Positions 12,752 through 53,195 of a stretch of 64,000 bases of DNA are shown here, piece by piece. The position numbers and the translations under genes were made by a program. Location of the stretch: contig JAUCBJ010007522.1 of the NCBI GenBank assembly GCA_032718475.1, positions 73,263-137,262 on the forward strand, written 5' to 3'. The notes below the pieces were generated by a model. The model saw nothing but the letters and a program-made list of their open reading frames with translations, had not been told where the DNA came from and searched no databases. Source of the stretch: Nemertoderma westbladi (Eukaryota > Animalia > Xenacoelomorpha). The number at the start of each line of letters is the position of its first letter. Position 1 is the first letter of the stretch.

Positions 12752-14905
12752 TTACGTTGAGGAGTCCCTAGATGTTGGTTGGATTGGGGAGGTGGTCGTG
12801 GGAAGAGCATCTTGCCTTCCATAGTTTCCGGAGAGTTCTCTGTCTCTTTCCAGTAAACATAAACGACCAACTGGGCGATTGAGCTGCTGTGTCTCGAAAA
12901 CAATCCCAGGTTTCCTCTTCTTCCTGGAATAGTGACGATAGAAACATCGCTTCAAATACACGACTGCCTTACAAAGCCGATTCCAGGAGCTATAGTGGTC
13001 CATCGCTCCCGGCAGGAGAGGTGAGAGTCCCTGTGAGACGTCTGATGTTCCAGATCTCCAGTTTCTCTCTCTGATCTCCACAACAGATCTGTTCGCGGTG
13101 GGGGAATTTAGATCCACAGCGTCGTCCCTGGCAATGTGTAATACAGACAGATCTATCACGGGTTTAAATAACCTCGATTTACTCGTCCGGGTTTTAGGTT
13201 TGACTTTCTCCGCTCCCTTGGCTTGTCTAATCTCAGCCGTGGTAAGATGGGGAGGCCATTCATCTTCTTTACTTAGGAAGTCGGGTCCACCTAACCAGTT
13301 TGGAGTATCTGTCAGTTCTTGAGGAGTTGCTCCTCTGGAAGCGATGTCGTCTAGATTAATCGTCTCGGGGCAATGTCTCCATTGATCTACATTAGAGTTA
13401 ATATCGTCATTATCTGAGGAGTATGGTGTTCCCTCAGTTGGGTCGTCTCCCTCACTGGTCTCATCCTCCCATTCACTCACCTGGTAGACCCGTTCTTTGT
13501 GTAGCCTTTCCATGAGAGTTCTACGGGAAGGTCCAGTAAAGTACCAACCTACTCTAGTTCTTCCCGCATAGGTTTGTAGTGGTTGCGGTTGAGCAGGCCG
13601 TTTCTCCAATGTCTCAAGCGCCTCATGCGCATTTTGGCCGATGAGTATTTGCACTCCAGGGTAGTCTGTGTTGAATCTAGGTATCTTATGCTGCTGGGTG
13701 AAGTCGTCCTCATCCCAGTTATAAGGTTCCACTTGGCTGGTAGCGAAGTTCTTTATTGCCACCATTTTTACTGACCTTATACTGCATTCTCCTAGTTCAT
13801 CCTGGGGGGTGGACAACGCACCTACATAGTAATCTGTAGTTACTGTAGATTTCCAAACCTGCATAATTCCTGACATGTTCAATTTAGTTCAGAACTTGGG
13901 TTGTCCAGCAAAGATGTCTTCGGCTAGTTCTTTGTCGATGAATGTTCCTGTGCTGCCGGAGTCAAGGAGGGCGTTCACTATATAACTCTTTTTAGGCCCG
14001 TGGACTCTCAACTGCACTACGGGAAATTCTCGGATTCCTACGTTGGAAGTTGGTGCTTTCCAAGATGGTTGTCGGTCAGGAGTAGTCAGGGGGAACTCGC
14101 TTTCAGTTTCTTTCTCATACGTAAGTGCTCGATACACTGCGGTATTTATTAGGTAACAGGATTCGTTTTCGTCGGAGAATTCATCCGTATAAAATCCTTC
14201 CATCTCAGAACTTTGGTCAGTGTCGTTCACATCACTGAATTGGACATGTAATTCGGACTCACTTACCTGACTCGGGCTGTTTCTTTCGAATTCAGTGTGC
14301 AACAAGATATGATGTTTCGCGCCGCACTTAGCACACCTTGCGTCGGAGTAACAGGTTCGCCGTTGGTGTCCTTGTCTGAGGCAATTATAACACAACCGCT
14401 TATTCCACATGACTTCACGTCTATCTATTAGGGATTTCCTCAGGAATTCATCACACGCACTTAAACGGTGGGGCCCGTCGCACAGCACACATTTTGGTTT
14501 GATGTTACTTACCTTACTTTGGGTAACGTTGTGCACTCTCGTTCTTTCCTCGGGCTTTCTTCCATGAATTCTCTTAGGAGACGTAGGAGGAGTTCTTGTT
14601 ACCTGTTCTCTCCTGTCATCGGTTCGAGACTTAAATTTACTTACGTCTTTAGGCGCTTTGTTAACATAGTAAGATCTTCCAGTGTCTTTCCCGCTGTCCT
14701 CCTCTTGAGAGGCCTGGCTTTCGCCGTCGTCTGTATAACACACTGGTGTTACCTTTCTCCTAGAAACGGGTTTCTCACTTACCTTATTTTCCGGTGTCTT
14801 CTCTCTGGACTGCTTTAGGAGCTGTAATTTTACCTCTCCATCTAAGAATGACATGAGATCAGCCATGGTAGGGTCTCGTCGTTGTTGTTCCATCATATAT
14901 AACAC
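12752..14905 (-). pseudogene. pol: BEL-B gag C-terminal knuckles, protease, and fused remnants of RNase H and integrase C-termini
   Basis: CVLCDGPH, CYNCLRQGHQRRTC, CAKCGAKHHILLH and ALLDSGSTGTF. Then ...DINSN|VDQWRHCP and ...HYS|RKKRK..LNRPVGRLCLLE. No RT motifs. Confidence 0.9.
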
Positions 14906-17661
14906 TTTCTTGTACCTACTCCACCCTTTGGCAGAGTTGATGCTAAGGCTCCTACAACCATAGAATTCTGGTATTCATGAGACTTACCTAACCAATATAG
15001 CTGTCTACAGATCTCCTGAATCTCGTCAGAAAACTCTATAATCCCGCTGCTAAGAAACTTTCGGGGCGCCATTAATTTTGCATACAAATACCTAGCTATG
15101 TTTGTCCTATTACCATACCTGATGTTTAGTGTATCCCAAACTTGTCTTAATCCATCTGGATGTCCAATAAACTTTAATGCCATTAACTTGGGAGGTCCTT
15201 CCAAACACTCGATGAGGAATCTAAGTTTCTCTCCGTTAGATAGTACAGAGTTCTGTATGTTATCTTTGTAATATTCATTAAAAGGTAACCAATTCACCTC
15301 ATCTCCATTGAACTTGACGATCTCTCCCATCTTTACCGCTTGACGAGCTTCAGTTCTAGCCATTTGACGCGTAAAACTTTCTTGGGCCATCGTGTTATTT
15401 AATATCGAGTTATCGGTATATAAATTTGACGGATTATGATCAGGTCTATATGGAATATCATTGTCAACAGGTTTATAATTACCCTTAATAGGGTTTACTA
15501 TAGGAGTTTCTACTTCACTAGCAGTATAGATGCGTGTAGGCTCCACACCTTGCGCATGAAATACTTCAGACCTAACAGGTTGACACATTGTTACAGGTGG
15601 TGGTGGTATACCCCTTTGTATATTTACTAATTTATCGCGTTCTAACGCGATACTCTGCTGCACTTCTTGCAACTCTAACCTACTTTCCCTTACTGTTCCC
15701 TTGAACTGTTGAACAGTCTCCTGCATCTGCCCGAGCAGGAGATCCATCCCCCGCCGTCCCTCATCCACCCACTCGACCGCCGAAGCGGGAGCCGCCAACA
15801 TAGTAGCGGGTAGACGAGGGACGACGGGCGATAAATCGTTGATGTCTCGCTCGGCGTCCAGGACAGGAATTGTCTCAGGGGCTGTTCTACTGGGCACAGG
15901 TAGTTTAGTGCTGTGCAACGGGAATTTCGAGGTAGGTTCTGGGAGTACAGGTGTCTCTATCACCAAAGGGGTGGCTTCGAGAACAGGCCTAATTGTTTCA
16001 GGCTCATCTACTATAGTAGGGAGTCTTTTTATTCTAATAATTTGGTCTGTGGGTTCTGTACTACCTAAGTCTGTGCTAGCTAGTTGCCTTCTCACAGCTG
16101 GGGGCAAATCAGGCAATTTCTGATGGTGGGGCATTCTTCTACGCCTGCTGAGACGAGATCTATTTCCTCCGCCTTCAGGATCGGTGGTATCGCCTTCATC
16201 AGATGATGTATAGCTCTGTCGCTTGGGAGTAGATCTACTTATCATCTGCATTTGACTAGCTGTTAACTGTTTATCTATGTAGTCTTGCGTCTCTTGCAGA
16301 TTTTCCAACTCTAGTTGGGTGGTCTCTTCAGATGCTCTCCATTCTGCTTCTGCCACTGCCTCTGCCGCTTTTCTTTCCGCTTCTACCGCTGCTCGCTTTC
16401 TTTCCGCTTCTACCTCTGCCGCTGCCGCTGCCGCTTTTCTTTCAACTTCTGCCGCGGCCGCTGCTGCTGTCTTTCTGTCTTCTATACGTTTTTTCTTTAC
16501 CAATTCTTCTTGGAGCCTAGCGATGCGGAGGCGTTCATCAAATTTAGTTTGGTTCGCAGCTAACATTTCCGCATCTAATGCGTCCAACACACACTTGGCT
16601 CCTTCACTATTAGGGCGAAGTCCAGCCAGCCGTCTCCTCAACTCTTCGTCTCCTTTAAATCGTTGATTGTCTGACAGATTGAGGTCAATAGCGTCCTTCT
16701 TCTGCGGTTTCTCTGCTGTCGCTTCGTTTTCCACTTGAGAAAAGGTAGCGTCTGTTGATTCTCCATGGGTTGAGCGCTCAGCCAGGTGAGATTTCCACTG
16801 GGCCATTCCTTGAACCTTGAGACTCACCCGTTGGAACCAAGTCTTCAACCGCTGCAACGACGTGTCCTGTCTTCTTTTCGAAGCTTCCTCAAAGGCCGAT
16901 AGGATTAGTCTGATTCTTAGAGTTCTTTCTCGAACTTGATAAAGCAGCTCTCCCTGCTCTTGAGGTCCTTGGGGTTGTTGAAACAGTTGTTCCTCTAATC
17001 GCTCCAAAGAGCTGAAGAAACTCTGTACATATCCTGCTGCCGACCTCTTCCACACAGCTGGATCACTAGTGTCTTTTGTCACTCCCATCCTGTGTAAGTC
17101 CTCCCAGGCAGCTTCCGATAAGTTAAATGGGAGTTCGGGTCTGGGGAAGTTCCATTGCGTCTCGACAATAGACTTCAGTTCCTCCCTTGTGTATCCCGCA
17201 TAAATGTCCTTGGTCGATTGCTTACTTCTCGCCCAATCGATTTGGTGTTCCTCCACCGCAATCAATACCCTAGTGAGTACAGCTGCAGGAAGAATGAGAA
17301 GGGGATCCGAATAAACCGCATCTGCCATCTTTGCTCCGCACTCGGGTGTCAGCTCTACAGTATCCGAACTACTGGAGCTGTCGGGCCGCTGAGAAATAAG
17401 TTCTCGGATCGGGTGTTGCTGCTGTTTAACAGCAGCAACTCCCTCTTGGTCCCGCTTGACTTGAGCCCTAGTGCCTATGATAGACCTATGGTGCTCTACT
17501 ATCCTAGGGTCTGACACTACTACTGTAGGGATGACCTTGCTTACAGTAGGAGGGGACTTGGACTTTGGTCTCAGACGTTCTATACTCTTAGCTGAGTCCC
17601 AGATCTTTTTAAGACCCTGTCTAACACTCATTCTAGCACTTTCTAAGAGACTATCTGACAA
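14893..17661 (-). CDS. gag: BEL-B Gag, long N-terminally extended form (922 aa to frameshift)
   Basis: KFNGDEVNWLPF...EKLRFLIECLEGPPK capsid motif and a coiled-coil Ala/Glu/Lys region. Collinear with BEL-C Gag. Confidence 0.88.
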   Translation of the reverse strand: MSDSLLESARMSVRQGLKKIWDSAKSIERLRPKSKSPPTVSKVIPTVVVSDPRIVEHHRSIIGTRAQVKRDQEGVAAVKQQQHPIRELISQRPDSSSSSDTVELTPECGAKMADAVYSDPLLILPAAVLTRVLIAVEEHQIDWARSKQSTKDIYAGYTREELKSIVETQWNFPRPELPFNLSEAAWEDLHRMGVTKDTSDPAVWKRSAAGYVQSFFSSLERLEEQLFQQPQGPQEQGELLYQVRERTLRIRLILSAFEEASKRRQDTSLQRLKTWFQRVSLKVQGMAQWKSHLAERSTHGESTDATFSQVENEATAEKPQKKDAIDLNLSDNQRFKGDEELRRRLAGLRPNSEGAKCVLDALDAEMLAANQTKFDERLRIARLQEELVKKKRIEDRKTAAAAAAEVERKAAAAAAEVEAERKRAAVEAERKAAEAVAEAEWRASEETTQLELENLQETQDYIDKQLTASQMQMISRSTPKRQSYTSSDEGDTTDPEGGGNRSRLSRRRRMPHHQKLPDLPPAVRRQLASTDLGSTEPTDQIIRIKRLPTIVDEPETIRPVLEATPLVIETPVLPEPTSKFPLHSTKLPVPSRTAPETIPVLDAERDINDLSPVVPRLPATMLAAPASAVEWVDEGRRGMDLLLGQMQETVQQFKGTVRESRLELQEVQQSIALERDKLVNIQRGIPPPPVTMCQPVRSEVFHAQGVEPTRIYTASEVETPIVNPIKGNYKPVDNDIPYRPDHNPSNLYTDNSILNNTMAQESFTRQMARTEARQAVKMGEIVKFNGDEVNWLPFNEYYKDNIQNSVLSNGEKLRFLIECLEGPPKLMALKFIGHPDGLRQVWDTLNIRYGNRTNIARYLYAKLMAPRKFLSSGIIEFSDEIQEICRQLYWLGKSHEYQNSMVVGALASTLPKGGVGTRKCYI

Positions 17662-17826
17662 TGTTTGTTTTGTGTCAATGTTTGTGTCAATGTTTGATTG
17701 TACAGTTGAATGCCTACTGCTATAATTACAGTTAGAGCAAGTCTAGTAATTCAGTATCACAGTTAGCCTAGTAATTAATTACCGATATCGTTACTCTATG
17801 TAACATGATATATATACAATATATTA

Positions 17827-19335: not shown

Positions 19336-20480
19336 TGTTCGTGCTTTTAGACTTTTAGCAGTTTAACCTGCCAAATTTAGGTGTCTTCTAGGTTATAAAT
19401 CGACTTTAGCCTAAGACTAGTATTTGATACACATAAACACTACATTAGCCGAAGCCAGCCTATGCGCGACCATTCACCCACTGGATTTACCCGGGAGACT
19501 GGATTCGGAAGCTCTGACCTTATTGCGGTGTAGGCCTACTGTACTATTAGATTGATCGTTAATATATAATCTCTGACAAATATTATTCACTTTCGGGAAA
19601 TACTAACAGTTCCTTTAGGACGTGGCGCTCTAAATATGTAAACAGAGTCATGACTTACACTAAACACAACGGGATGGCTATTGATTTACGTATAAGGCGC
19701 ATTCTTTAGGAAATGCTTGTTATCTGTCACACTCATGCACACTAACGCACAATGCTGCACACCAATCTGCCGACCTTCACTAATTTTAGTCATATATAAA
19801 GAGAACAGCAACCGACACATGTAGGGCCTATGAAATAGCATTCATTTCACTCCAAAACCACTATAATGTAAGTCGCAATTGCTATATGTAACCGGTCTCT
19901 CTAACCTTCAGTATATCAAGAAGATTGGGGTTTTATGGTGATTTATCGATATTCTCCAAATATAACAATATTCCATCAACTGATACAATTAATAACAGAC
20001 AGTAAATAGCAGTAGAATAATGCGTCATGCATATGTATGCACTGATAACAGTTATACGTTTCTATAATCAAAGCCGTTCTAATGTTTGGCTAAAGTCTGA
20101 AACACAGAATAATTCCACGGCCGGTGTTCTAGGCTTAGGAAAAATACACACTGACTGAATTGCGTGAATTTCTGTATGCACTGTCCAACACAGAGGGAAA
20201 ACCGCTCTGATTGGTGCCGAACAAAGAAAGCCAAAAGCTACACGTCGACATCTCAGCTGATAGATGTCGTCATCTGAAATACACTGTATTAAGAGTATTT
20301 TTGGTGCATTGCGGCATAAAATTGCTAGTTATGTCCGCTAAAGTACACATACAGAAGAAATGGCTTTTTATGTCCACTAAAACACCTGTACAGTAAGGAA
20401 ACGGCTTTTTATGTCCACTAAAACACCTACAGAGTACTTTGCGGGGAAAATAACCAGCTAATTCCGCAAAAGCCTTTACA
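19336..20480 (-). repeat. BEL-B 5' LTR (1145 bp)
   Basis: TGT...ACA termini on the minus strand. Differs from the 3' LTR by a few substitutions and two small indels. Confidence 0.95.
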
Positions 20481-21258
20481 ACAGGAGACTAGAAATCTCC
20501 ACCCAATATTAGTAAATAGAGATGTGGGACCCTTGATGGCCGCCACATAGACTTACCGTATTTTAGTAATTTAGTATTTTGTATTACTGTATGTGCATTT
20601 GTAATCCTCTTCACTGTAGATAGAGACAGCGGTGGAATTCCATTGTCTTTATATGTGAACATGGAGGGTAGTACCCTTATGTATCACATAGGAGCGGGAT
20701 TGTGTGTACAGTAGGAATGGAATTCCACTTGCAACCCACAAGTGAGACAATTTTTCAAAAATTATTAGACAAATCCATTTTGTTGGATTTAAATTTAAGA
20801 AAAATGATTCTCCAGTGAATGCGAATTCTAGAATACAGCTAGATAAAAATTAAAATTGGGGAGGACAAGAGCGGATGGAAGGCTTGCGAGCCTACCAATA
20901 AAATTTTTTTTTGGAAAAAGAAAATCGGCCTTGTTCTACGTAGTCGTGTCTACTATTATTTAGACCAAATTAATTCTCGACTGCATTATTTCTTTGGGAA
21001 TGTAGTTTGGGAAATTAAAAGGTGAGTATTTTAGACTCGCGGCTAGTTTACCCGGAATTCGTTTTTTATCGGCACAATTTTTTTTTGGATTAGGAGCCAG
21101 TGCGAAATCACACGAACCCGAAGTACCTAAAGAGGTGAGGTCTCTATAGGGGTGCTTCAAACAGGCGGCGGCGGACTCATGAGGGTCTGGGGGCACGTTA
21201 AAATATTTCGCGTATAGTGCTAGGGAGTCACTGAAGGCCCTCGTGTCTAGCGAATCAG

Positions 21259-21764
21259 CTGATCAGTTTATAAGACAACTTCAAGTCTCTGGAATGAAGA
21301 TGGGACTCGAATAAGTGACTCTGCCGTCTTTGCGGGATTACACGGAATAGACTTATCGGTCATCTGAGATCTTCAAATGTATAATATCCAGTTCAAACTT
21401 AGGCTCATTCGAAAGCTCTTTGCTTAGAGAACAAAGTTACCATTTGATTCAAGATAAAATGGTTGTGAAGCAACATAACATGAATTTGGGTAAAACATGC
21501 CTTGCAAATTTTGTTCAAGTTATGATTGCTCAGGCAGCTTTCAAGAGTTTGCCAAACCAAATGGTAACTTTGGTCCTTGAGAAAAGAGCTTTCGAATGAG
21601 CCCAAAAGGAACTCATTACGACTACTAGAACTGGAGATTATACATTTTGAAGATCTCCGATGACCGATAAGTCTATTCCGTGTATTCCCGCAAAGACCGC
21701 AGAGTCGCTTATTCGAGTCCTGTCTTCATTCCAGAGACTTGAAGTTGTCTTATAAACTGATCAG
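21259..21764. mobile_element. Foldback/MITE-like element, almost wholly palindromic
   Basis: ~135-bp outer inverted arms (CTGATCAGTTTATAAGACAAC... / ...GTTGTCTTATAAACTGATCAG) plus inner arms (GGCTCATTCGAAAGCTC / GAGCTTTCGAATGAGCC). Confidence 0.8.
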
Positions 21765-22491: not shown

Positions 22492-22993
22492 CAGCCCTTG
22501 CTGCTATATGGCAGCTGGTGCTAATCACTCCTGGACGGTTTATAAGGGTCCCGAATAAGATGGAATAAATAAAAACAGCACTGGACATCTCAAACTTGTA
22601 CTTTTTGGTGATGGGTACGAAATTTGGTGCTAGCATCGAAATTTCTCATATTACGTCGAAAATACGAGTAGCAATGATCTGGCAATGCCTGCCTGGTTAC
22701 AGACCAGTCAGGGCCTAAACCGGCTGGCGTTATACAATGCTATTAATTCACATTATCAAGTTTCATGGGGCGCTGATTCTAATGGAATACATTTCTAATT
22801 TGCCAGATCATTGCTACTCGTATTTTCGACGTAATATGAGAAATTTCGATGCCAGCACCAAATTTCGTACCCATCACCAAAAAGTACAAGTTTGAGATGT
22901 CCAGTGCTGTTTTTATTTATTCCATCTTATTCGGGACCCTTATAAACCGTCCAGGAGTGATTAGCACCAGCTGCCATATAGCAGCAAGGGCTG
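22492..22993. repeat. 194-bp near-perfect inverted repeat with 114-bp spacer
   Basis: 22492-22685 is the reverse complement of 22800-22993 (one mismatch seen). Mirrored ORFs appear in the ORF track. Confidence 0.92.
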
Positions 22994-31266: not shown

Positions 31267-33801
31267 AATAATAATAATAATAATAAAATAAATTTGTATA
31301 GCGCCAAATTTACAATATTTAAACAGTACGCTAAGGCGCTTAAGTCACTATCTAGAGATATTGGTACATAGCGATAAAGTACGATAAACGAATATAATAA
31401 ACTCAATTAATGCACCAAATACAGACAAATTAGTGATAAAGTAAAATATTTTGGATATTAAAACGGACAAGTAAGCGATATGTAAAATATATGATAAATA
31501 TATGTCATAAAAAATATGTAAAATATTTAGAGCATTAAAATAAAACCGGCAAATTTTGATAATGTTACACAATTGGGGCATTAAAAACAGGCAGATATGT
31601 GACACGACAACGATCAGCATAAGTTCAGTGATACAATTACAAATACTTAAATTAATTACTACAAATTGACAATGCAGTTTGTAATTTTATTGCGTGGCGA
31701 AAAGTATCAAAATAAGACAAATTCGTGATCAACTATAAGCAAAATAATTAATTAAGGATTTAAAACGGACAATTAAGTGACAAACGAATAAGTAAAATAT
31801 TTAGAGCATTAAAACCGGCAAATTTTGATAACGTTACACAATTGGGGCATTAAAAAACAGGCAGATATGTGACACGACAACGATCAGCATAAGTTCAGTG
31901 ATACAATTACAGATACTTAAATTAATTACTACAAATTGACAATGCAGTTTGTAATTTTATTGCGTGGCGAAAAGTATCAAAATAAGACAAATTCGTGATC
32001 AACTAATATAAGCAAAATAATTAATTAAGGATTTAAAACGGACAATTAAGTGACAAACGAATAAGTAAAATATTTAGAGCATTAAAACCGGCAAATTTTG
32101 ATAACGCTACACAATTGGGGCATTAAAAAACAGGCAGATATGTGACACGACAACGATCAATATAAAGTTCAGTAATACAATTACGAATACTTCAATAAAT
32201 AAAACGGTTCAATCAACAGTTCAGTTCAAATTTTCAATATAAGTAAAATTAATTAGAGCTTAAAAGAAAAAAGTTTGTACGATATACAATGCAGTATACA
32301 TACCAACATTATTAGAGCATTAAAAGACAGTTCAATGAAGCAAATTAGATAATATAATTAAATTAAATACTAGAGGTATTCGAAACTAATTATGCGTATG
32401 CCATGGAGAAAAGGTATGTTTTGAGTCGTCGCTTGAAGGTCGGTGTATCGGAAATCGAACGGATATCTGTGGGGAGTTTATTCCAGAGTCTGGGGGCGGC
32501 TATGGGGAAGGCCCGACGGCCCAAAGTTTGGCAGTTAAAACGCGGTTCGACGAGCGAGAGTGAAGTGCACCTTCGGGTTGTGTGGTTTGCGTAGGTCACC
32601 GGGGTTAGCATTTCGCGGATGTACTGTGGTGCTCGTTGCGATCGGGACTTGTGAACGAGGAGAAGTAATTTGAATTCGATGCGTTTCCGAACTGGTAGCC
32701 AATGTAATTGCTTGAGACTCGGAGTGATGTGATCGTATTTGTGAACCTTGGTTAGTAGACGTGCAGCCGAGTTTTGTACGCGTTGCAACTTTGCAAGTTG
32801 GTAGCCAGGTACACCGTAGAGAAGACCGTTACAGTAATCGATACGGCTTGATATGAGCGAGTGTATGATGGTTTCTGCAGACTTCTGGTCGAGAAAGTTA
32901 GCGATGCGTCGAATATTGTGGAAGTGGAAGAAGGCTGCGCTACAAGTTTTTGTTATGAACTTGCTCATGGTTAGACCAGGATCGAGCCATGCACCAAGGT
33001 TCTTCACCGATTTTGCTGGATATATTTCAAAGTCCCCAACACGAATAGACTTAGTAGTTAGTTTAGATAATTGTTGCGGGGTTCCTAATATTATAAACTC
33101 GGTTTTGTCATCGTTTATTTTTAGTTTATTTTCGATGAACCATTCGCGCAAATCTGCGATGCAATTTTCTAGAGCTTTTAGTGCATCGGCTTCATCGGAT
33201 TCGTTAGTTGGCTGAAATGCGTGGTAGGTTTGTTTATCATCTGCATATCCATGTAAAGCAATCGGTAAGTGTCGCTCGATGATTTTAAATAGCCCTCTGC
33301 CAAAGTTCCCAAAGTAGTGACATGATGAGCAAGCTCCCTGGGGAAAACCATATTCTAGTAAGTGATCCTTAGAGTTCGAACCCAATGTTGTTACGTGTTG
33401 ATGACGTCCTCGGAGAAACGATGAAAACCAACGGAGACAGGTGCCACAAATTCCCAGGTCCGACTCGAATACGTTCAATAGCCGATCGTGGTCTACAGTG
33501 TCGAAGGCGGCACTTAGATCTAGTAGCACTAGAAATGTCACCTTCTTGTTGTCCATGTTGATAAGGATATCGGATTGAACTTTAATTAAGGCTGTTTCGG
33601 TACTGTGGAATCGTCGATATCCCGATTCAGTGCATGGTAAAGGATGGTGTTCATCAATGTATGGTAGGAATTGTGACATTACTGCTCGCTCTGCAATTTT
33701 TGATACAAATGGTAAACCACTTACAGGTCGAAAATTGGATTTTATAATCGAGTTCAAATTAGTTTTCTTTAAAGTCGGCGTGACTGTTGCCGTTTTCCGT
33801 T
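31267..33801 (-). mobile_element. 5'-truncated L2/CR1-group LINE
   Basis: RT ORF 33757-32390. The 3' end GGCGCTATACAAAT...(TTA)n has a GCGCC/GGCGC stem. A ~273-bp tandem duplication lies in the 3' UTR (31519-32190). Confidence 0.92.
32390..33757 (-). CDS. LINE ORF2 reverse transcriptase, C-terminal 455 aa
   Basis: NFRPVS, HSTETAL, LDLSAAFDTVDH, GFPQG, YADD, SRIDYCN, LHWLPV and GRRAF motifs. Confidence 0.92.
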   Translation of the reverse strand: MNSIIKSNFRPVSGLPFVSKIAERAVMSQFLPYIDEHHPLPCTESGYRRFHSTETALIKVQSDILINMDNKKVTFLVLLDLSAAFDTVDHDRLLNVFESDLGICGTCLRWFSSFLRGRHQHVTTLGSNSKDHLLEYGFPQGACSSCHYFGNFGRGLFKIIERHLPIALHGYADDKQTYHAFQPTNESDEADALKALENCIADLREWFIENKLKINDDKTEFIILGTPQQLSKLTTKSIRVGDFEIYPAKSVKNLGAWLDPGLTMSKFITKTCSAAFFHFHNIRRIANFLDQKSAETIIHSLISSRIDYCNGLLYGVPGYQLAKLQRVQNSAARLLTKVHKYDHITPSLKQLHWLPVRKRIEFKLLLLVHKSRSQRAPQYIREMLTPVTYANHTTRRCTSLSLVEPRFNCQTLGRRAFPIAAPRLWNKLPTDIRSISDTPTFKRRLKTYLFSMAYA

Positions 33802-36415
33802 TGATTGGCTAATACCCATTTGCATTCAGCTTACCAGCCCCAGCCTATATAGCATTATATCAGTTGGTCAGCCTAACTATTGAAGATTTATTAGTTAACA
33901 GCTCACTAGCTGTTAGTAGATTTGTGGGTCGGAATATTCACGTCAATTCGTGATATTGCCGATGTCAATTTGTGATATTGATTCGTATTATGTCGATTTA
34001 TTGTTTGTCGATTAATTAATTTGTTATATCAGTTGAATTATTGCGATTTATGTTATTATTATGTTATCGATAAAGATAAAGAGAATGGATTCAAGTCATT
34101 CTGTTGTTGATTAACGTTGGTAGCACAATAACATTGAGGTTGGTGGTCTATAGACTGTACGGTATTGCAACTCATCGCACTGGGGTGTACGTGTTACAGT
34201 ATTGTCATATGACGCCTAATATTAATAGCAAACTAACATATTTTAATACGTGCACAAAATTAATTCCTGTGACATCGGTATCTCGGATTGTCAGTTTCAT
34301 AAATCCGACTTCCATAAGTCTCGAATGAATACAGTTTTCAGTTAGACATAAAGACGTAAGCAGCCCAGATACACAACTTAAAGGAACTATTTATACGGGG
34401 TTTCAAATCTGTTTATAGTAACGCCAGTTTTATATGCAACAATAAATTATTCTACGAGTACAAGTAACGGTTACTAGCGCCCGTTTCTTGTATATACAGC
34501 TGGTCGTAAGTTTAGGCTCATTATTTGCAAAATTGAATTGTAGCGCTAACAGTGAATATTTAACTCAGTGAAGATTTCGCCAGCGAATATTATCCACCTG
34601 GTGAATTTTTCTCCTCGCATTTATTGTTGCATTGTCCTTATCTGTAATTCTAGAGTAGGCTATTTAGGACTGCGCACCCTGAATAGAATATTTTAAGTTT
34701 ACAACTGTCGGTGTTATAAATTGATTTACTGTGTATAGAATAGGAGTTGTAAAAATTTATTTACCTGAATGTTTACATTTACAGTATGTACATTTATTGT
34801 TGTAGCATTTAATAGTTCAGTGTAGATTCTGCACTCAAATATTTCAAGCGGCTAACGAACTGCGTGTCCCCCACCTTTTTGATAGGACGTCCCGCACGTC
34901 CCTTGCGTAATTATATCTCGCTTGGTGTCAATCTCGTCTTAATAGTAAATCGAGTATCTATCTAAATATTCTGGGAGAGGTATTTGAAGAAATTTTTCTG
35001 TACTGTGTTGTTTGTGTTTCGATTGTGAATTGCTTATTTGTGAGTGTGATTTCAGGTGACTGAATGTGTTTGTGCTGTTCCCGTCTTGACTGCATGAAAA
35101 CTGGATTAATTGGTCCCATATCAATCCTGTTGGTGTTCGGTATAGTGAGTACGTTTAAGGGATTTGAACGCTCAGTTGTATTGCGTTCAGCGGCAGATCG
35201 ACAGTAAGATTCCTAGCTACGTGCGAATAGGGTATCGATGATCGTTGGGTAACTGAGCAGACGTATTTCTTATTGTAAGCACGAGTTCCTGATATCAAGT
35301 TATTAAATTTTGCTTACCAGCGGGTAAGGCTAAGCAAAATTTATTCCTGTGGACAGCAGTGTTTGTTTGAAAATTGTATGCAATTAAAGAATTTCTCCCT
35401 TGACGCTGTTCGGTTTCGGAGGCTGGGGAAACTTCCACGTGTCAGACTCGACGTTGTAAATCTATGCAGGTCTCGGCGTACCATAAGTCTATGTGTGTTC
35501 GTAACCTGACAGTGGAATTGTGTGCGACAGATTGATAAATATTGTTGAAAGCAAAATGCGAAGTCCCAAAATAGTTGGAATTAAATTCCAGCTATAAACA
35601 TAAATTTACTCCCCTGATAAATCTAACCCGTTAAATTGTCCTATCCATTTATTGTAATATTTTGATTTGTAATATTTTGATTTGTAATAATTTTCTTTGT
35701 ATATTAAGTACGCATTATCATTAGGTACATTCTATTGTATTATCATTCTGTAGTAGATTAATTTATATTGCAGGAATATAAGAATAATCTATATACCAAA
35801 GCAATTTGGTCACATTTATTTCATAGACATACGGCATCAATATAACTTGTCTATATCATTCATTACAGGCATACAAGTTACTCGGAACTGCCAATATATC
35901 GAATTAACTTCCCTGCAGTCGACCCAGTTACTGTTAGTCTATATTGGAACATTGCCAAGAGAGTACAATACAATAGCTTGTAACAGAAAGCTTTAACATC
36001 AGCCCATACTGCCTTGATAATTATTGTAGGTAACTGAGCGAACAAGGAGGGCCATTTGTTATCTCCTCTGACTGCCTTAGTATAAGCCATTTACTGTCAA
36101 GCCCTATTAAATTGAATTATCCATATAGGCATCGCCAATCAGATAGCTACAGTAGCTTCCACCAGTGTAATTTCATCTGAGGGTGTTAGGCAAAGGCGAC
36201 TCCTTACGGGAATATCCAGCACTAGCATTTCTTTAACTAGCACTTGTTATCTTTCTATCAGTAGGTGGCGTGGCTTATTTCTGTTGCAGAAATCAACTGA
36301 CTGACAAGCTATATATACTGCATTAATAATTATTAATTATTTGCAGGCGCTACAGTTTATAAATAAATTATAGATTGGATCTTTTTAATTAATTATATTT
36401 AATTAATTAATTAAC

Positions 36416-43704: not shown

Positions 43705-44005
43705 TGTTAGATTATGTATTGTAAGGGCTCTAGTAGACCCTGGCTTGGTGGTGGTTAGATCCAACCTACTGGTCTTTTAGCTACCGGTCTTCTTCTGGTA
43801 TTCCGGTATTCAGTCTTTCCTATCTTCTAGGTCTGTAGGTACAGTAACCGTTACCAGTACCTACTGTACTGCTGTACTGATGTGCTGTAAGGTGGTGGGT
43901 GTGTTCGTTGGTCTGTTGGTTCTTATTATTGTTTGATATGCTGTTCTGTATGTCGACCATTAATAAACTGATGCAGCTGGTATTCATTTATTTCCGATCC
44001 CAATA

Positions 44006-44016
44006 TGGCGCAGTGA
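44006..44016 (+). promoter_or_regulatory. tRNA primer-binding site of the Gypsy element (TGGCGCAGTGA; possibly tRNA-Ser)
   Basis: TGG lies immediately after the 5' LTR. The tRNA identity is from memory of tRNA-Ser 3' ends (...CTGCGCCA) and was not verified. Confidence 0.75.
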
Positions 44017-44177
44017 TGTACTTGATGTTCCTACAACCCTATTCAAATGGTGGACATTCCAGCGCATTCAGCAGGTTAGATAATTCAACATTATTCTACC
44101 GGTCGCCTCTACTGATTCTGATATAGGCCTAGCTACCTACCTATACTTCTGGTGGTGTACCTACTCCAGTACTCTTC

Positions 44178-44353
44178 TAAACTAAGCCCTTGGGACGGAC
44201 AGTGGAGTGACTCACGCTGGTTATCGTTGTCGTTGTGTAGCTACTACGTTGGCGAAAAACACAGCGACGACGGTAGCCTACATCGGCGCTGAGGACCTTG
44301 CGCTGTCCGGGGGCCTTGAGGGGTAGGCAGCGACGCCCGCTAGCCTAATTATA
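44178..44353 (+). ncRNA. Putative structured RNA module in the Gypsy 5' UTR, shared with BEL-B
   Basis: Closely matches the reverse complement of 11086-11256. Several differences are G-U/Watson-Crick exchanges within stems. Confidence 0.65.
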
Positions 44354-44555
44354 CTGTTATAACTACCGGTACCTATTCAATTCACATTCAGCAGTCAGGT
44401 GGTATTCCAGTCTGCCAGTATTCGATAACTACAGATTTTGGCTGATTTGCGTGCAAAAGTTTTGCACATTTTTGCAAAATTTTTTCTTTTCGGATTTTTC
44501 AAATTTTTTCGGATATTTAATTTCCTGAAATTTCTTTAATATTCAACAGTCAGAT

Positions 44556-47500
44556 ATGCCTACTAAAGCTGAACTCGAAACCGAACTGGAGGTTTTAAGA
44601 GAACAGTTGGCTGGTCGTGGTAATCCTGATCCCACCTCAGCTCTTCTACATGCATTAGTTAAATCGCAACGCGATTTGGCTGATTCCTTAGCACAATCCC
44701 AAGCCCAAAATGCCCATCAATTTCAACAATTACTTGGTCAACCGCATCAACCTGTAGTTCATCAGTCTGACTCAACCCCTCGTAATCTTCAAATTAAAGC
44801 ACCAATTGCTTTAGAACCGGATTTCAGTTTAGCAAAATTTGAAACTCGGAAGTCGGTTTGGGCGGATTATTATTCTGCATTTCAGATGGATAGAATGGCT
44901 AGGGATAGGCAAATCTGTATTTTCAGGAGTTACCTTTCTATAGGTATGCGCTCTACACTGGAACAAGTTATTGACATTCCTCCTGACACACATGATAATC
45001 CTTTAACAGTTCAGGTGTTAATAGATTGTATTCAAAGTTATTTTCGTGGTAAACGGAATATAGCCCTTGATTGTGTTCAGTTTGATAATAGGAAACAACG
45101 TCAAAGTGAAAATTTTGATAGCTACCTGGTTGCTATTAAAGATCTTGCTCGAGATGCTGATCTATGTCGTCATTGTTTCGATCGGCGGTTGACTACTCGA
45201 ATTATGTCTGGTATTTCTTGCGAGGACACCAGATCTAAACTTCTTGCATTGACTCCATTTCCATCGCTTGAAGATGCTGTAAATCTTTGTAGGTCTGAGG
45301 AATCAGCCCAAGCTGGAGTTCAGGATTTAAAAAACCCTTCAATCAACCAAGCTTCTCGACAATCTCGTTTTCACAACAAAAAGCCTTATAATTCCAGGCG
45401 CAACAATTCTTCTAAATCCAATTCCAGAAACAATTCTTCAACTACTGGCCCTATAGTTTGTTATGGTTGTGGTAAAACAGACCATAAACGCGCTGACTGT
45501 CCAGCAAGGAACAAAGATTGTTCTTATGGTGGCAAGGAAGGCCACTTTGCCAATGTTTGTCGGTCTAAACAAAATAATTCGAATTCATCTTCAAAACCTA
45601 AGACAAAACCCATTAGCCGCATCACCCTCAATTTGGTTGGAAGCCATAATCGACAAGCTCCGAAAGTATTTCTGAACTTCTGTCATATCGCAACAGGACA
45701 TTTATTCGGTTCTCTCAAAGCAACTCCAGATACTGGTGCTGAGGCCACTGTTGCCGGCTTAGATTTTCTTCAGGCCCTTTCTATTGACAAAGAAAATTTA
45801 CTTCCACCAGACCATGATGATCTTTCTGCTGCTAATGGTAGTCTTCTTTCATGCATTGGTCTCCTCCACACCACAATTTCCTATGGCGAATATTCAACTG
45901 ATGAGCTCATCTGCATTTGTGAAGAAGTCGATGGAATTCTTTTGGCATGGTATACTTGTCAAAACCTAGGAATTATTTCAAGTTCATATCCAGAACCAGT
46001 GGCAGAAATTCAGTCTGTTACTTCTTCTAATTCTTCTAATATGTCACCTATTGGTATTAAAAACTCAATTCCAACAACATCATTCAAGGTTGACTTCCAT
46101 CTTTCTGATGAACCTTCGCCTTCAGAATGGGATACTGTTAAGCAGAAACTCATAAAGGCTTATTCTGATGTTTTTGACCAAGATGACAAACTTCGTCCAA
46201 TGAATGGCCCACCCATGACCATTTCATTAAAAGATGATGCCCAACCATATGCTATTCATACAGCCAGGCAACTTCCTTTAGCCATTAGAGACTGGGCTAA
46301 AGCTCGCTTAGAGAAAATGGTTGAACAAGGTATTATTTGTCCAGTTCTGGATAACGAACCAACTGATTGGGTCCATCCTTCCGATATCACTTCTGATATC
46401 ACTTCCGATATCATTTCCGATATCACTTCCGATATCACTTCCGATATCACTTCCGATATCACTTCCGATATCACTTCTGATATCACTTCCGATATCATTT
46501 CCGATATCACTTCCGATATCACTTCCGATATCACTTCCAATATCATTTCCGATATCACTTCCGATATCACTTCTGATATCACTTCCGATATCACTTCCGA
46601 TATCACTTCCGATATCACTTCCGATATCGATTCGATTCCAGACGCACTTTCCCGTGCCCCTGTTTCGGATCCTACTCCAGAGGATATTCTTTGTGATACA
46701 GATGTCAATGACCATGTCTCCGCAGTCATACGTCACGTGTCTACCTCAATTGTTGTCTCTGATGCTCCAAGTCATCTCAAGGATTCATATATTGAGTCTA
46801 TCCGATCATCTGCAAAGGATGATATTTCTTACATGGCTTTGGTGGATGCTGTTATTTCTGGATTTCCCTCAACATCCACACAATGTTCTGTGCACATACG
46901 CCCATTCTGGAATGTGCGACATCAGTTATCTTGTGAAGATAATCTTCTTTTATTAGGTTCCCGGATTGTAATTCCATCTTCCCTCCGTAAGGATGTCCTG
47001 AAGCACCTTCATGATGCTCATCAGGGCATTGAACGTTTTAAGAGGAGAGCTAGGCAAACTGTATTCTGGCCTGGTATCAATAGCGATATTACAAGCATAG
47101 TCAATTCTTGTCCCCAGTGTCAACTTTATCAACCAAGTTTACCTACAGAGTCTCTCCAAAGCGACCCTCATCCATGTCTTCCAATGGAGGATTGCTCTGC
47201 TGATCTTTTCTACTTCAGCACCTGGTCATACCTGGTTTATGTCGATAGATATTCTGGGTGGCCATGCGTTCATTCTTGGTGTGCCGATCCTTCCAGCTCT
47301 CAAGTTATTTCAGCTCTTCGAGGATGGTTCAAAGATTTCGGTATTCCAAAACGCCTTCGTTCTGATGGTGGTACACAATTTAATTCAGCACATTATCATG
47401 ATTTCTTATCCGAATGGAATATCATCCCTGAGTATTCTACTCCTGAGTATCCTCAGTCTAATGGCCATGCAGAGGGGGCTGTAAAGGCCATGAAATCATT

Positions 47501-48020
47501 GATAAAAAAGTTAGATATCAAAGGAGATCTAAACTCTACTTGCTTTGTTCGTGGTTTGCTGGAATGGAGAAATACTCCTAAAGAACATGGTATGTCTCCA
47601 GCTCAACTGTTGTTTGGTAGATCCCTCCGTTCCACTATACCAGCTCATTCGTCCACACTGGCAGGTGATTCATTCCCTATCCCTGGTCCTTCAACGTCTT
47701 CAGCAACTGAATCATATTATAATGATCATGCTCACGACTTAACCCCGATTCCTATTGGTTCCCGAGTTTGCATCCAGAGTGCACATTCCAAACTATGGAA
47801 CAAATCTGGTATCGTCCTTTCCCGTGGTACTAGGCAAGATTACAGGATTGAACTAGACAATGGTCGGGTGTATTGGAGAAATCGTCGTTATCTGCGTTCC
47901 ATCCCAGATGACTCTTCTCTTCGTGACATAATGCCTCAAAAACAGGTACAGTTCGCTGATGATCTTCCCAGGCGCAGTTCGAGAACTCACAAGCAACCAG
48001 CAAGATTCGGAGTTCAATGA
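44556..48020 (+). CDS. Gypsy Gag-PR-(RT/RNase H replaced by repeat)-IN single ORF, 1154 aa
   Basis: Two knuckles (CYGCGKTDHKRADC, CSYGGKEGHFANVC), PR PDTGAE, RT start ...WVHP, then (SDIT)n, then IPDALSR. IN: LHDAHQG..CPQC, SDGGTQF, PQSNGHAE. Confidence 0.92.
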   Translation: MPTKAELETELEVLREQLAGRGNPDPTSALLHALVKSQRDLADSLAQSQAQNAHQFQQLLGQPHQPVVHQSDSTPRNLQIKAPIALEPDFSLAKFETRKSVWADYYSAFQMDRMARDRQICIFRSYLSIGMRSTLEQVIDIPPDTHDNPLTVQVLIDCIQSYFRGKRNIALDCVQFDNRKQRQSENFDSYLVAIKDLARDADLCRHCFDRRLTTRIMSGISCEDTRSKLLALTPFPSLEDAVNLCRSEESAQAGVQDLKNPSINQASRQSRFHNKKPYNSRRNNSSKSNSRNNSSTTGPIVCYGCGKTDHKRADCPARNKDCSYGGKEGHFANVCRSKQNNSNSSSKPKTKPISRITLNLVGSHNRQAPKVFLNFCHIATGHLFGSLKATPDTGAEATVAGLDFLQALSIDKENLLPPDHDDLSAANGSLLSCIGLLHTTISYGEYSTDELICICEEVDGILLAWYTCQNLGIISSSYPEPVAEIQSVTSSNSSNMSPIGIKNSIPTTSFKVDFHLSDEPSPSEWDTVKQKLIKAYSDVFDQDDKLRPMNGPPMTISLKDDAQPYAIHTARQLPLAIRDWAKARLEKMVEQGIICPVLDNEPTDWVHPSDITSDITSDIISDITSDITSDITSDITSDITSDITSDIISDITSDITSDITSNIISDITSDITSDITSDITSDITSDITSDIDSIPDALSRAPVSDPTPEDILCDTDVNDHVSAVIRHVSTSIVVSDAPSHLKDSYIESIRSSAKDDISYMALVDAVISGFPSTSTQCSVHIRPFWNVRHQLSCEDNLLLLGSRIVIPSSLRKDVLKHLHDAHQGIERFKRRARQTVFWPGINSDITSIVNSCPQCQLYQPSLPTESLQSDPHPCLPMEDCSADLFYFSTWSYLVYVDRYSGWPCVHSWCADPSSSQVISALRGWFKDFGIPKRLRSDGGTQFNSAHYHDFLSEWNIIPEYSTPEYPQSNGHAEGAVKAMKSLIKKLDIKGDLNSTCFVRGLLEWRNTPKEHGMSPAQLLFGRSLRSTIPAHSSTLAGDSFPIPGPSTSSATESYYNDHAHDLTPIPIGSRVCIQSAHSKLWNKSGIVLSRGTRQDYRIELDNGRVYWRNRRYLRSIPDDSSLRDIMPQKQVQFADDLPRRSSRTHKQPARFGVQ
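46380..46628 (+). repeat. 12-bp tandem repeat (TCCGATATCACT) x ~21, in frame
   Basis: Direct tandem copies with a palindromic GATATC core. Confidence 0.97.
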
Positions 48021-48392
48021 ACTGACCTATTGGTGGTGGTTGGATTTTTTTTTTTCAGTACAAATGTCTCCTACATTGTTCTTGGGGGAGATGGTAGATT
48101 ATGTATTGTTAGGGCTCTAGTAGACCCTGGCTTGGTGGTGGTTAGATCCAACCTACTGGTCTTTTAGCTACCGGTCCTCTTCTGGTATTCCGGTATTCAG
48201 TCTTTCCTATCTTCTAGGTCTGTAGGTACAGTAACCGTTACCGGTACCTACTGTACTGCTGTACTGATGTGCTGTAAGGTGGTGGGTGTGTTCGTTGGTC
48301 TGTTGGTTCTTATTATTGTTTGATATGCTGTTCTGTATGTCGACCATTAATAAACTGATGCAGCTGGTATTCATTTATTTCCGATCCCAATA

Positions 48393-49277: not shown

Positions 49278-50644
49278 TAAACATTGGATACGATTGTGAT
49301 AACATTCCATCAAATCGTGGGAACGGGTTATTGTAAATTCGGATTAACATAGCAAATTTTTTTAAAAAACTTAAAGAGTGCAGATTCTTAAAGTTTAGCT
49401 TATTTACGCTGTAAGAATATACTGTATGTACGCTCTAAGAATATCATGTATGTACGCTGTACCTGTAAGAATATAATGTAAATATTTAGGCTACATAATA
49501 GTGACACAAAATAAATTTGGCTTTATTGTACATTAATCTACGAGTCTATAATAGGCTTATACTCTGAAAGTGTACAGTAAAAGAAGTCCCATAGCATGTC
49601 AATAAAATATGACAAATCACGGGAACGGAATAAACTCCCACTGCTGAGTAAAAATTTTGTTCAACACCCCGTGTAATTATACTATATATCCCATTTGGTC
49701 TTATTGTACAATAACTTATGTTATAAATTGCTTAATGTTCGCCGGTGTACAATAAGAGAAGTCCCCACATAACAATATGAATAAATATATTGTTTATACC
49801 TTTGACAAACTGAATGTTTGGATGTCCCAAGGCATCGTTGAACCTATCCGATGTACTTGCACATCATAATAAGCATCAGTTGTTAACGTCGTATTATAAA
49901 TAAAATATTAAAAGATCAAGGGAACGGATGGAGAAATTGAATATTTCTTTAACCGATGCACTTGCTGCGCTTTATAACAAACATTATTTGTTATAAATTT
50001 AAATAATTATGGGAACGGATTGCAAAATAAACCCAATAAAATAACCAATTTGGCCTCCTTGTACATTAATTCACGGATAGATATATTTATATTCAACCGG
50101 TGTGCAACGAGGGAAGTCTTCACAACAGTCAAATACTGTTGTCATTTTGACCATTTAAAGCCACAAGTCATCCCTGAATTAATCAGATATATTTGTGCGC
50201 GCAATAACGTCAATTGCTAACGTCTTTATATCTAATATAAATGTTAAATTGCAAAATTTTCAAATAGAAGGAACAAAATAAATTATTTCAATCAGACAGA
50301 AATATATTAATATTTCATGTCACGTTATTTAATGTCACAGATGATAAATAAGATATAAATCTGTTATATGACATTACCTCTATTTGAATGCATGATAACT
50401 ACTCTAACTATTCTCGTTCTCCTAGATGCCGCAGTTATAGTTGATTAATTCGAAAGATAAAGCATAATTATTGTTCAATTTTTGTCAAACAACAAATAAT
50501 GGGATAATAATATGTATACAATTAGTAACTAGCTATGAAATTTAATTAGCGGCATCGTGGAAAACACCAAATCAACGGAACCTTTGTATTTGTGTCGCAC
50601 CGTGAAATAAACAATTGATCTCAGCTAATCTCTGTGTGTTACAG

Positions 50645-50906
50645 TAGCGAGTTGCGGTATCTATTGGCAGTTTATATCTCACGAGTAAAGTTAAAGCTTT
50701 TGCCTCAATATTTTGTGACTTGCCGGCAATGATCAATAGCGGCCCGCAGCTCTGGATGGTTTTGAGGGACTCGGCTTAAGTTTATTGTCCGCCACCGGAT
50801 TGGTAGTTATATCCGAAGGTGCGGAACAAAACAATAAACTGCCCGAGAAACTCAAACCATACTGCGGGTGAAAGGGAAGAGGTGGCGACGTCCGCTAACC
50901 TCAATT
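50645..50906 (+). ncRNA. Putative structured RNA module upstream of the BEL-C accessory ORF
   Basis: Long hairpin CCCGCAG(50743)...CTGCGGG(50868). Conserved flanking motifs TAGCGAGTTGC and GCGACGTCCGCTA, as in BEL-B. Confidence 0.55.
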
Positions 50907-50956
50907 TCGACAAGCACTTATAACTCTTGATATCTTTGGATCATATATATCGAACA

Positions 50957-51306
50957 ATGGATTTAATTGAAGATGATCACGAATTAAGGGAGCGATATAT
51001 TCGGGCTATGAAGGAATTATTGGATGGTCTCTCAATTGGATCACCGACGAACAACCCCTATCTCGATATGCTGAGCCGTAAATGATGGATGAGCAACTCA
51101 GATGGGAGTTCAACTATTGTAGTTCCCCGAATTACCTTACACAAACCGAGATGTTTGAACTCTCTTTGACGAGCGAACCAAGAATCGCAATCCTTGATCA
51201 CCGAATCCTTTATCACATTTGGACGCTTTTGACTAGAGAGTACAGTCAAGTGAGTTCCCCGAGATCAGCGAGTATTCCCCTCCACGTCAACCGCTGCCCA
51301 TTGTGA
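50957..51306 (+). pseudogene. BEL-C accessory ORF homologue (disrupted); may extend toward 52260
   Basis: ATG at 50957 gives MDLIEDDHELRERYIRAMKELLDGL; the shifted frame reads RYAEP*MMDEQLRWEFNY. Aligns with BEL-B 11049-10663. Confidence 0.7.
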
Positions 51307-52328
51307 ATGTGGCGACTGTCACGATTTAATGAATAGACTCTAACTGACTCGAGACATCATCCGTGGAACAGTTGTCTCCAGTATATCTGAAGTCAATCAG
51401 AAATTCTCGATCCTTTCGACTACTGCATATATGAGTCGAATGACATCATGTATCGAGATTCTAGCGTTGTTGGAACAGCTCAACCAAACCATGGAAATTG
51501 AGCTGACCGCCAGTCTGGTGGCGAGTATAGGACACAGTAGACTCTGTACGAACAACAAAGAGTTTGGTCGCCCGACATAGAGTTATAACATAGGGTCATT
51601 GACCGTATGGACAGCTGTTTCGAACGAAATTACCTCCATAGTACAATTCCTGATGATAATGAGTCCTACAGTATCGTCAAAGTAATTCAACAAGTTCCCA
51701 AAGACGGCGATTCCTTCTTCGAGAAATCATCCCGAGTTGAGGGAGACGGGGTGCCGCAAGGTTAAAACAAATCGACATCGGGACCATGTATCCAATTTCC
51801 AATGAACCTAAGCAGTTCATGACAACAACTAAAACATTCGCAGTCCCGACGCAGCCGTATTAATACATGTGTTGGACTTACCTCCGATAAAACCGAGACG
51901 AGATACCAATATTGGGTATGGGAAATTACTGAAGCGGTCTACTGCGAGACAGCACCGATAACTTCAGACGGGTAACGAACAGCTGAACACCTCTATCCAT
52001 CCGCGCATATGCTGGAAAGGTTCTTGTTGCTGACGTTCTAGAACTGCGCCCATTCCCAGATGACACCTTGGTGGAGTCACTTACCCATTACCCAAACACC
52101 CTCGATATGATTACCAAGGGCGAAGTTGGCAGATTAAAGTCGGAAAGGTCAAGAAGGAAGGTTAAACAAGGTAGATTGAGCCTGCTGCGGAGATTAAGAG
52201 AATTGAGTCTTCCAAATTGTAAATTCTGTTTATTTAACAAGAACTTGTTAAATTTGTAGACTTTGTTTATTAAGCAGAACTTGTTTTACAAGTTGTAGTA
52301 TGTACTTAGCCTCAACTCTCGGGAACGG

Positions 52329-53195
52329 TGTTAATGCCACTAGTGAATGGCATTTACCTCGCAGGCTCGCCCCATATTGTTAATTTACTTCTGCCAGGGA
52401 ATTATTATGTTATACGGCAAGGGCCATGCAGAATAGCTCTGATTGGCTAATACCCATTTGCATTCAGCTTACCAGCCCCAGCCTATATATAGTATAGCAT
52501 TATATCAGTTGGTCAGCCTAACTATTGAAGATTTATTAGTTAACAGCTCACTAGCTGTTAGTAGATTTGTGGGTCGGAATATTCACGTCAATTCGTGATA
52601 TTGCCGATGTCAATTTGTGATATTGATTCGTATTATGTCGATTTATTGTTTGCCTATTAATTAATTTGTTATATCAGTTGAATTATTGCGATTTATGTTA
52701 TTATTATGTTATCGATAAAGATAAAGAGAATGGATTCAAGTCATTCTGTTGTTGATTAACGTTGGTAGCACAATAACATTGAGGTTGGTGGTCTATAGAC
52801 TGTCACGGTATTGCAACTCATCGCACTGGGGTGTGTGTTACAGTATTGTCATATGACGCCTAATATTAATAGCAAACTAACATATTTTAATACGTGCACA
52901 AAATTAATTCCTGTGACATCGGTATCTCGGATTGTCAGTTTCATAAATCCGACTTCCATAAGTCTCGAATGAATACAGTTTTCAGTTAGACATAAAGACG
53001 TAAGCAGCCCAGACACACAACTTAAAGGAACTATTTATACGGGGTTTCAAATCTGTTTATAGTAACGCCAGTTTTATATGCAACAATAAATTATTCTACG
53101 AGTACAAGTAACGGTTACTAGCGCCCGTTTCTTGTATATACAGCTGGTCGTAAGTTTAGGCTCATTATTTGCAAAATTGAATTGTAGCGCTAACA
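52329..53195 (+). repeat. BEL-C 3' LTR (867 bp)
   Basis: TGT...ACA termini. ATTGG (CCAAT) at ~52442, TATATATA at ~52484, AATAAA at ~53085. Confidence 0.95.

Follow-up and report, generated by a model that had tools for sequence, protein, structure and literature searches.

Retrotransposons of the window

The window, that is the whole stretch of 64,000 nt analysed here, is a nest of retrotransposons within satellite-rich DNA, likely of an animal to judge by its Pfam matches and named relatives, and three of the elements, BEL-B, BEL-C and a Gypsy element nested in BEL-C, carry the module described below (Table 1). Enzymes are missing in two of these three hosts. According to tblastn, BEL-B has gag and protease and lacks RT and integrase, its last ORF jumping straight from where the RT region begins to where RNase H ends, and from there to the last 41 pol residues. 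The nested Gypsy, whose insertion is marked by a 5-bp target duplication, has an ORF of 1163 open codons in which integrase is present and RT/RNase H is absent, this part being swapped in frame for a tandem repeat with a 12-nt unit (about 46380-46630). BEL-A likewise has 12-nt units repeated in frame in its pol (6140-6475), between RNase H and integrase. BEL-B (12752-17742, minus strand) is a deletion derivative without RT or integrase; even so, as many as 5856 contigs per run fall on its 3' region. The integrase of BEL-C matched no locus in viral contigs, and its best 82 protein relatives are at most 42% identical. In both BEL elements about 1.7 kb of non-coding DNA lies between the pol stop and the accessory ORF. 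Additionally, a LINE-type RT fragment (31267-33801) is inserted into the 5' LTR of BEL-C, and two inverted repeats, each some 500 bp long (21259-21764 and 22492-22993; 76% and 86%), are likely foldback or MITE-type elements.

Table 1. Positions of the elements and module parts in the window.
Feature	Position	Strand	Remarks
BEL-B LTRs	8308-9455 and 19338-20480	- (element)	98.6% alike
BEL-B module	11088-11330	-	host without RT and integrase; accessory ATG 11049
BEL-C		+	BEL/Pao element; sits within 20-bp satellite
Nested Gypsy	43705-48392		splits BEL-C pol; 301-bp LTRs 43705-44005 and 48092-48392
Third copy (rod and 3' hairpin, without 5' motif)	44179-44353	+	in leader of nested Gypsy
Candidate 3' splice site, BEL-C	50624-50644	+	CTAAT branch-point-like word, GT-rich tract, TTACAG
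5' motif	BEL-C 50634-50655; BEL-B 11320-11298	BEL-C +; BEL-B -	TTACAG ends at 50644 in BEL-C
Conserved 11-nt part of 5' motif	50645-50655	+	TAGCGAGTYGC; 10 of 11 letters common to BEL-B
Long irregular hairpin (rod)	50742-50869	+	46 predicted pairs; matched by covariance model of BEL-B and Gypsy copies
Symmetric 3x3 internal loop	50764-50853	+	GAG/CUC closing helices; arms 50764-50772 and 50845-50853
Small 3' hairpin	50879-50902	+	5+4 pairs, one bulged base (50897), loop ACGYC
3' motif	BEL-C 50885-50901; BEL-B 11109-11093; Gypsy leader 44330-44346	BEL-C +; BEL-B -
BEL-C accessory ORF region	50957-52259	+	in pieces; first stop after 42 codons; basic tail at end

A tRNA primer site of the TGG type is absent from both BEL-B and BEL-C. 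In BEL-B, the bases directly after the 5' LTR (19335-19324, minus strand) are complementary to the LTR at about 20056-20045 over 11 nt (12 if the LTR ends in CA), and those after the 5' LTR of BEL-C (34552-34560) are complementary to LTR positions 52578-52586 over 9 nt; such complementarity was matched by 0.03% of 3259 random starts in BEL-B and 0.8% of 3025 in BEL-C. Tf1-type elements self-prime reverse transcription, and by analogy the complementarity of both BEL LTRs resembles this type of priming; no case of self-priming in BEL elements was found in the open-licence literature. The purine tract that precedes the 3' LTR (52321 in BEL-C; 9463, minus strand, in BEL-B) recurs four times in the BEL-C spacer (49319, 49621, 49920 and 50011) and once in the BEL-B spacer (11736), and these copies are possibly extra plus-strand priming sites. 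Decayed internal repeats are also held by both spacers.

An RNA module in two superfamilies

Directly before the BEL-C accessory ORF, the first-pass annotation had reported a long hairpin and two motifs conserved with BEL-B, and reading and folding of the stems confirmed them all in place; the position upstream of the accessory ATG also holds, the ATG itself being corrected to 50957. The outer stem of the rod pairs CCCGCAG (50743-50749) with CTGCGGG (50862-50868), and further stems are formed by ATGGTTTTGAG (50756-50766) with CTCAAACCAT (50851-50860), leaving one bulged T, and by AGTTTATTGT (50779-50788) with ACAATAAACT (50831-50840). When up to three mismatches are allowed, the two strands of the window together hold two copies of the 5' motif and three of the 3' motif, and shuffling the 400 bases that directly precede the accessory ATG never gave two colinear motif matches this good (0 of 1000 shuffles). 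Plain MAFFT misaligns the 5' motif. Its first half, GTGTGTTACAGTA, recurs in the BEL-C LTR (52833-52845 and 34191-34201).

The third copy lies in the Gypsy leader, downstream of the primer site (44006) and upstream of the gag ATG (44556), as a 175-nt tract 90.9% identical to BEL-B 11254-11086. The flanks of this tract show an ungapped identity to BEL-B of only 2-9 in 20, and a gapped alignment extends the likeness loosely at most. The common tract comprises the long hairpin, the 3' hairpin and little else, both of its ends lying close to the edges of the predicted fold. The Gypsy copy folds with a z of -6.0 in sense and -1.0 in antisense, and the BEL-B module reaches -58.1 in sense vs -37.3 kcal/mol in antisense; over these two copies, sense beats antisense by 21-26 kcal/mol. 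The strands are equal in BEL-C, where 50741-50905 has a z of -4.4 (100 shuffles) and its antisense strand one of -6.0, and BEL-C alone therefore does not tell the strand.

A covariance model was built from the BEL-B and Gypsy copies only and run over the window with filters off and a rough calibration of E. Its best match beyond the training copies was BEL-C 50732-50906 (plus strand), recovered at full length (27 bits, E 5e-4), and the runner-up among the 64 matches up to E 10 was the antisense strand of BEL-B (E 0.04). A sequence-only model of the same alignment, without structure, gave BEL-C 6.3 bits (E 0.55) in its 3' part only. Structural comparison of the three copies, which the earlier annotation had put forward as its check, recovered a common predicted fold, and the claim that structure was conserved despite sequence turnover is supported, since the structure model finds BEL-C, the sequence model does not and the inner loop is in common. 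In the model-fitted alignment, which leans to structure, 10 of 59 pairs are changed in both partners and pairing holds in 98% of 151 cells; it leaves the upper stem of BEL-C unaligned and was weighed lightly. The same model found no module copy in the visible 3' end of BEL-A (20481-21300). The module is a real RNA element, undescribed in the open-licence literature, and its oddity is its presence in two superfamilies.

The inner loop is a feature of the rod absent from the earlier annotation: both arms carry GAG-xxx-CUY, which gives a symmetric 3x3 loop following the dyad pattern GAG-NGA-CUY / GAG-NAN-CUY. Its letters are UGA/GAU in BEL-B, UGA/GAC in Gypsy and GGA/AAA in BEL-C, and its closing pairs are kept in all three copies. 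The pattern, picked after viewing the copies, occurs three times on the two strands of the window, once per module. The loop is a likely protein-binding site. Judged by eye against the familiar features of these motifs, a K-turn was rejected for the G-A loop, which has no 3-nt bulge, as was a SECIS, since BEL-C has no UGA arm.

The occurrence of CUGANGA and GAAA in the BEL-B and Gypsy copies could point to a self-cleaving ribozyme, and together with the possibility of a group I intron piece this is a reading that we regard as scarcely credible. CUGANGA is absent from both strands of BEL-C, and a hammerhead, in any order of its parts, requires the CUGANGA and GAAA core in every copy. For group I introns, one-mismatch R and S core words fall on the dyad-loop arms of all three copies, with extras as one flank match in Gypsy and one on the BEL-C antisense strand, but the copies hold no exact core word. 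Furthermore, Rfam 15 gave no match at the gathering threshold in the window; a search up to E 10 yielded only weak matches (E 0.5-2) to unrelated families, the best being E 2 for BEL-C and 0.53 for BEL-B.

Contigs from four DNA runs (at most three samples) were overlaid on BEL-C and BEL-B. BEL-C is uniform, with 1-54 contigs per run and 14 differences listed over 1001 bases, among which four single-letter changes and no indels fall in the module. BEL-B is far more varied (46-5856 contigs per run): 40 differences are listed (147 further ones are less supported), of which 19 lie within 11088-11256 and 17 were scored, two flank places seen in one contig being omitted. Nine of the scored differences are at paired places. 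Among the differences listed, all seven in the rod keep the pair, one of them only jointly with a change of its partner, one in the 3' hairpin turns a mismatch into a pair and one of the nine breaks a weak outer pair. Pair-keeping is partly expected by chance, because most BEL-B changes are transitions, which are tolerated more often through G-U.

These data bear on a further alternative, namely that the module has no selected role; in that case the motifs would reflect shared ancestry, the hairpins would be inverted duplications in decay and Gypsy would have captured its copy by chance. There are only two independent versions of the module, B-like and C, and this, together with the like folding of both BEL-C strands and the defects of all three host copies, would agree with such an origin. 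However, G-U makes up 9 of 44 rod pairs in the sense strand of BEL-B and 8 of 44 in that of Gypsy, against one in antisense, the inner loop is common in register and the family variants keep pairs, and we consider the absence of any selected role very unlikely.

The 3' hairpin was claimed earlier as a bulged hairpin with compensated outer pairs, and both the compensation and its survival in the Gypsy copy, which has no 5' motif, support this. Between BEL-C and Gypsy, the outer pairs are changed on both sides at two places. The pairing given for it, GAGGT/ACCTC vs TAGGC/GCCTA, stands as a compensation, but TAGGC/GCCTA is the Gypsy form and the window's BEL-B copy has one mismatch, at a place that is paired in most other B-family contigs. 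Pair probabilities are 0.93-1.00 for eight of nine pairs in BEL-C and 0.91-0.93 for seven of nine in Gypsy, and only 0.02-0.28 in the mismatched BEL-B copy. The bulged base differs in 14-97% of the depth by run among B-family contigs, which makes it a bulge and not a fixed A. Searched alone, the hairpin pattern had no match in viral contigs; its sole match in metagenomes, a sequence of 64% GC otherwise unlike the window, was set aside as chance. The searches gave no homologue of the module outside this genome.

Candidate splice acceptor, possible long-range pairing and accessory ORF

The candidate acceptor of BEL-C is conserved with BEL-B (11330-11309) and is directly followed by a second AG (CAG TAG). 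A CTRA word precedes the AG by 16 nt in BEL-C and 13 nt in BEL-B, with CAG in both. Among the YAG sites of the spacers, 2 of 29 in BEL-C and 3 of 53 in BEL-B pass the CTRA filter, and TTACAG is the sole one that lies in a block shared by the two. Its tract is weak (5 and 8 pyrimidines of 12 in the two BELs). The conserved block begins 11 bases ahead of the part capable of pairing, and those bases end in CAG. In addition, donor-like sites are present in the leaders of both BELs, and the ORF3s of LTR elements are typically expressed via spliced messages (PMC5408684). An acceptor downstream of the 3' hairpin was rejected as not common to the copies, an AG lying about 40 nt after it in BEL-B and Gypsy and only AAG in BEL-C.

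The mutual complementarity of the two motifs reported in the first-pass annotation is real on paper, as 10 pairs (TAGCG/CGCTA and GTYGC/GCGAC) can be drawn. From this, a two-state switch could be envisaged, in which the first exon bases and the 3' motif pair in competition with the local 3' hairpin and so set the use of TTACAG, balancing genome RNA and accessory mRNA. The 10 pairs are possible in both BELs, which also share the branch-point-like word, and the 5' motif ranks 2nd of 1609 spacer windows in BEL-B and 3rd of 1580 in BEL-C as partner of the 3' motif. Over the helix span, BEL-B and BEL-C differ at one G-C/G-U place and in one base unpaired either way, so the inner letters of the hairpin are nearly fixed while its outer pairs covary. 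Such a pattern would fit a double constraint, and equally a protein that reads the letters. Of the conformational switch as proposed, then, the possible pairing and the nearly fixed letters stand, but the switch itself finds no backing in the folds: the long-range helix has a probability of 0.00 in six of six (three window sizes each for BEL-C and BEL-B), and forcing it costs 8.2-11.1 kcal/mol in BEL-C and 3.8-8.4 in BEL-B. Furthermore, no compensatory change was seen in it between BEL-B and BEL-C, six of its 10 pairs follow from both motifs being short GCG...YGC palindromes, and its terminal base (11097) is replaced in many B-family contigs. Partners that outscore the 5' motif exist elsewhere in each element, the Gypsy copy has no 5' motif and BEL-C has a stronger acceptor at 50425 that is not conserved in BEL-B. 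We therefore consider a splice switch unlikely.

The accessory ORFs of the two BELs are related, with N-termini 45% identical over 38 aa (E 4e-4), and both have basic tails (12 and 9 K/R per 20 residues in BEL-B and BEL-C, respectively). No Pfam family was found at cut-off for 11 accessory pieces of BEL-B and BEL-C, and the BEL-B N-terminal piece had no relative among 123 candidates; of two phmmer matches to this piece, P0085 is a repeat protein and was judged spurious and P0084 is without the matched stretch. Calling the accessory protein 'Rev-like' would thus be an analogy drawn from the basic tail. In BEL-C the first accessory frame stop overlaps the ATG of the next frame (ATGA, 51082-51085), which is either stop-restart translation or plain decay.

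Past a spacer of about 1.4 kb that is AT-rich, a structured GC-rich island ends 42 nt before the AUG in BEL-B and 54 nt before it in BEL-C. This position could suggest translation control of the accessory ORF, by internal entry, shunt or autoregulation, with Gypsy reusing the module for gag. The Gypsy module precedes an AUG too, and a leader this stable would hinder plain scanning, which would agree with such control. On the other hand, the distance to the gag AUG is 208 nt in Gypsy, two upstream ATGs lie within the BEL-C module, the stop that ends the BEL-C accessory ORF after 42 codons has no listed difference in any of the four runs, and, although the position alone fits an IRES, no IRES family of Rfam matched. 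On balance, translation control appears unlikely, if a little less so than a splice switch.

Known systems and a possible routing signal

Export elements that proteins read are built in this way, as a long irregular stem bearing a symmetric loop rich in purines; the CTE has two mirror loops where the module has one dyad loop. The CTE of MPMV is described in PMC12789967 as a 234-nt stem loop at the 3' end in all viral RNAs, and the MTE of musD, in PMC5767303, as an LTR retrotransposon element depending on long-range pairing. The module resembles both as a structured cis element, about 170-270 nt long, that is located in the 3' part of its LTR element, and an extended sense-strand stem loop with a conserved internal loop, by which likeness to the CTE and MTE was judged, is present in its predicted fold. 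It differs from them in the lack of an Rfam match, in its BEL/Pao host and in its location, which is upstream of an accessory ORF and at a distance of 1.4 kb from the 3' LTR.

The interval between the primer site and gag is the usual position of Psi, and the Gypsy copy lies in this interval; the module is also kept by RT-less elements. Unlike Psi, the BEL modules are in the 3' half; the module shows no conserved palindromic loop, and although it contains GACG, the predicted fold does not place this in a tetraloop. By analogy, the BELs would also be similar to Rev/RRE, Rex/RxRE, Rem/RmRE and CERV in having an accessory ORF with a basic tail, a likely spliced message, a long irregular stem and a purine-rich loop. 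The accessory pieces, however, match no family, Cer1 is not a BEL/Pao but a Gypsy/Ty3-type element, and, in contrast to the HIV RRE, the module would lie in an exon. CERV of Cer1 demonstrates that export proteins can be encoded by LTR elements of invertebrates (PMC10309623). The SPRE of endogenous retroviruses is presented in PMC8579622 as a post-transcriptional element with short conserved motifs in different element families; on that description it is sequence-defined and belongs to mammalian ERVs, whereas the module is mainly fold-defined and common to two superfamilies. In the open-licence literature, we found no report describing a structured element for export or packaging in BEL/Pao.

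We favour, tentatively and a little short of an even chance, a model in which the module is a cis signal for nuclear export or packaging of full-length RNA, in the manner of CTE, RRE or Psi. The same fold is predicted in two elements that lack RT and belong to different superfamilies, and together with the basic tails this is what favours such a signal, as non-autonomous elements would be expected to keep what their RNA needs in cis. The predicted fold is kept across sequence turnover, folding is sense-strand-specific in BEL-B and Gypsy, and both non-autonomous elements retain the module. Furthermore, the accessory ORF of BEL-C stops early, yet its module is nearly invariant, with no indel among the differences listed. 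Against this reading, the spacing of 42-54 nt before the AUG in the BELs fits translation control equally well, and the Gypsy capture may be recent, so that selection is perhaps not yet visible.

In the mechanism that we infer for the routing signal, a protein would recognise the rod through its shape and through the symmetric purine-rich loop, which would allow the stem letters to turn over. This reader could come from the host, as an export factor, or be the accessory protein with its basic tail, whose ORF lies directly downstream and which is itself probably made from a spliced message using TTACAG. Template switching would likely have brought the rod and the 3' hairpin of a BEL-B relative into the Gypsy, which has no RT of its own and would have kept the captured module at the usual place of a packaging signal. 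A transfer from BEL to Gypsy is suggested by the common position of the module in two diverged BELs. In a bolder version, which we hold to be rather unlikely, this BEL/Pao lineage would have its own Rev/RRE-like system of a spliced basic-tailed protein and a dyad-loop RNA, in elements seemingly primed without tRNA, and the RT-less Gypsy would have stolen the RNA element to ride on BEL export or packaging.

Two sequence solutions to one predicted fold and a transplant into another superfamily delimit a unit of 170 nt. If the module is a routing signal, it would show how invertebrate LTR elements deal with RNA left unspliced, as well as that BEL and Gypsy elements can exchange such signals, and, should the bolder version also be true, it would represent parasitism across retrotransposon superfamilies by means of a portable RNA signal.
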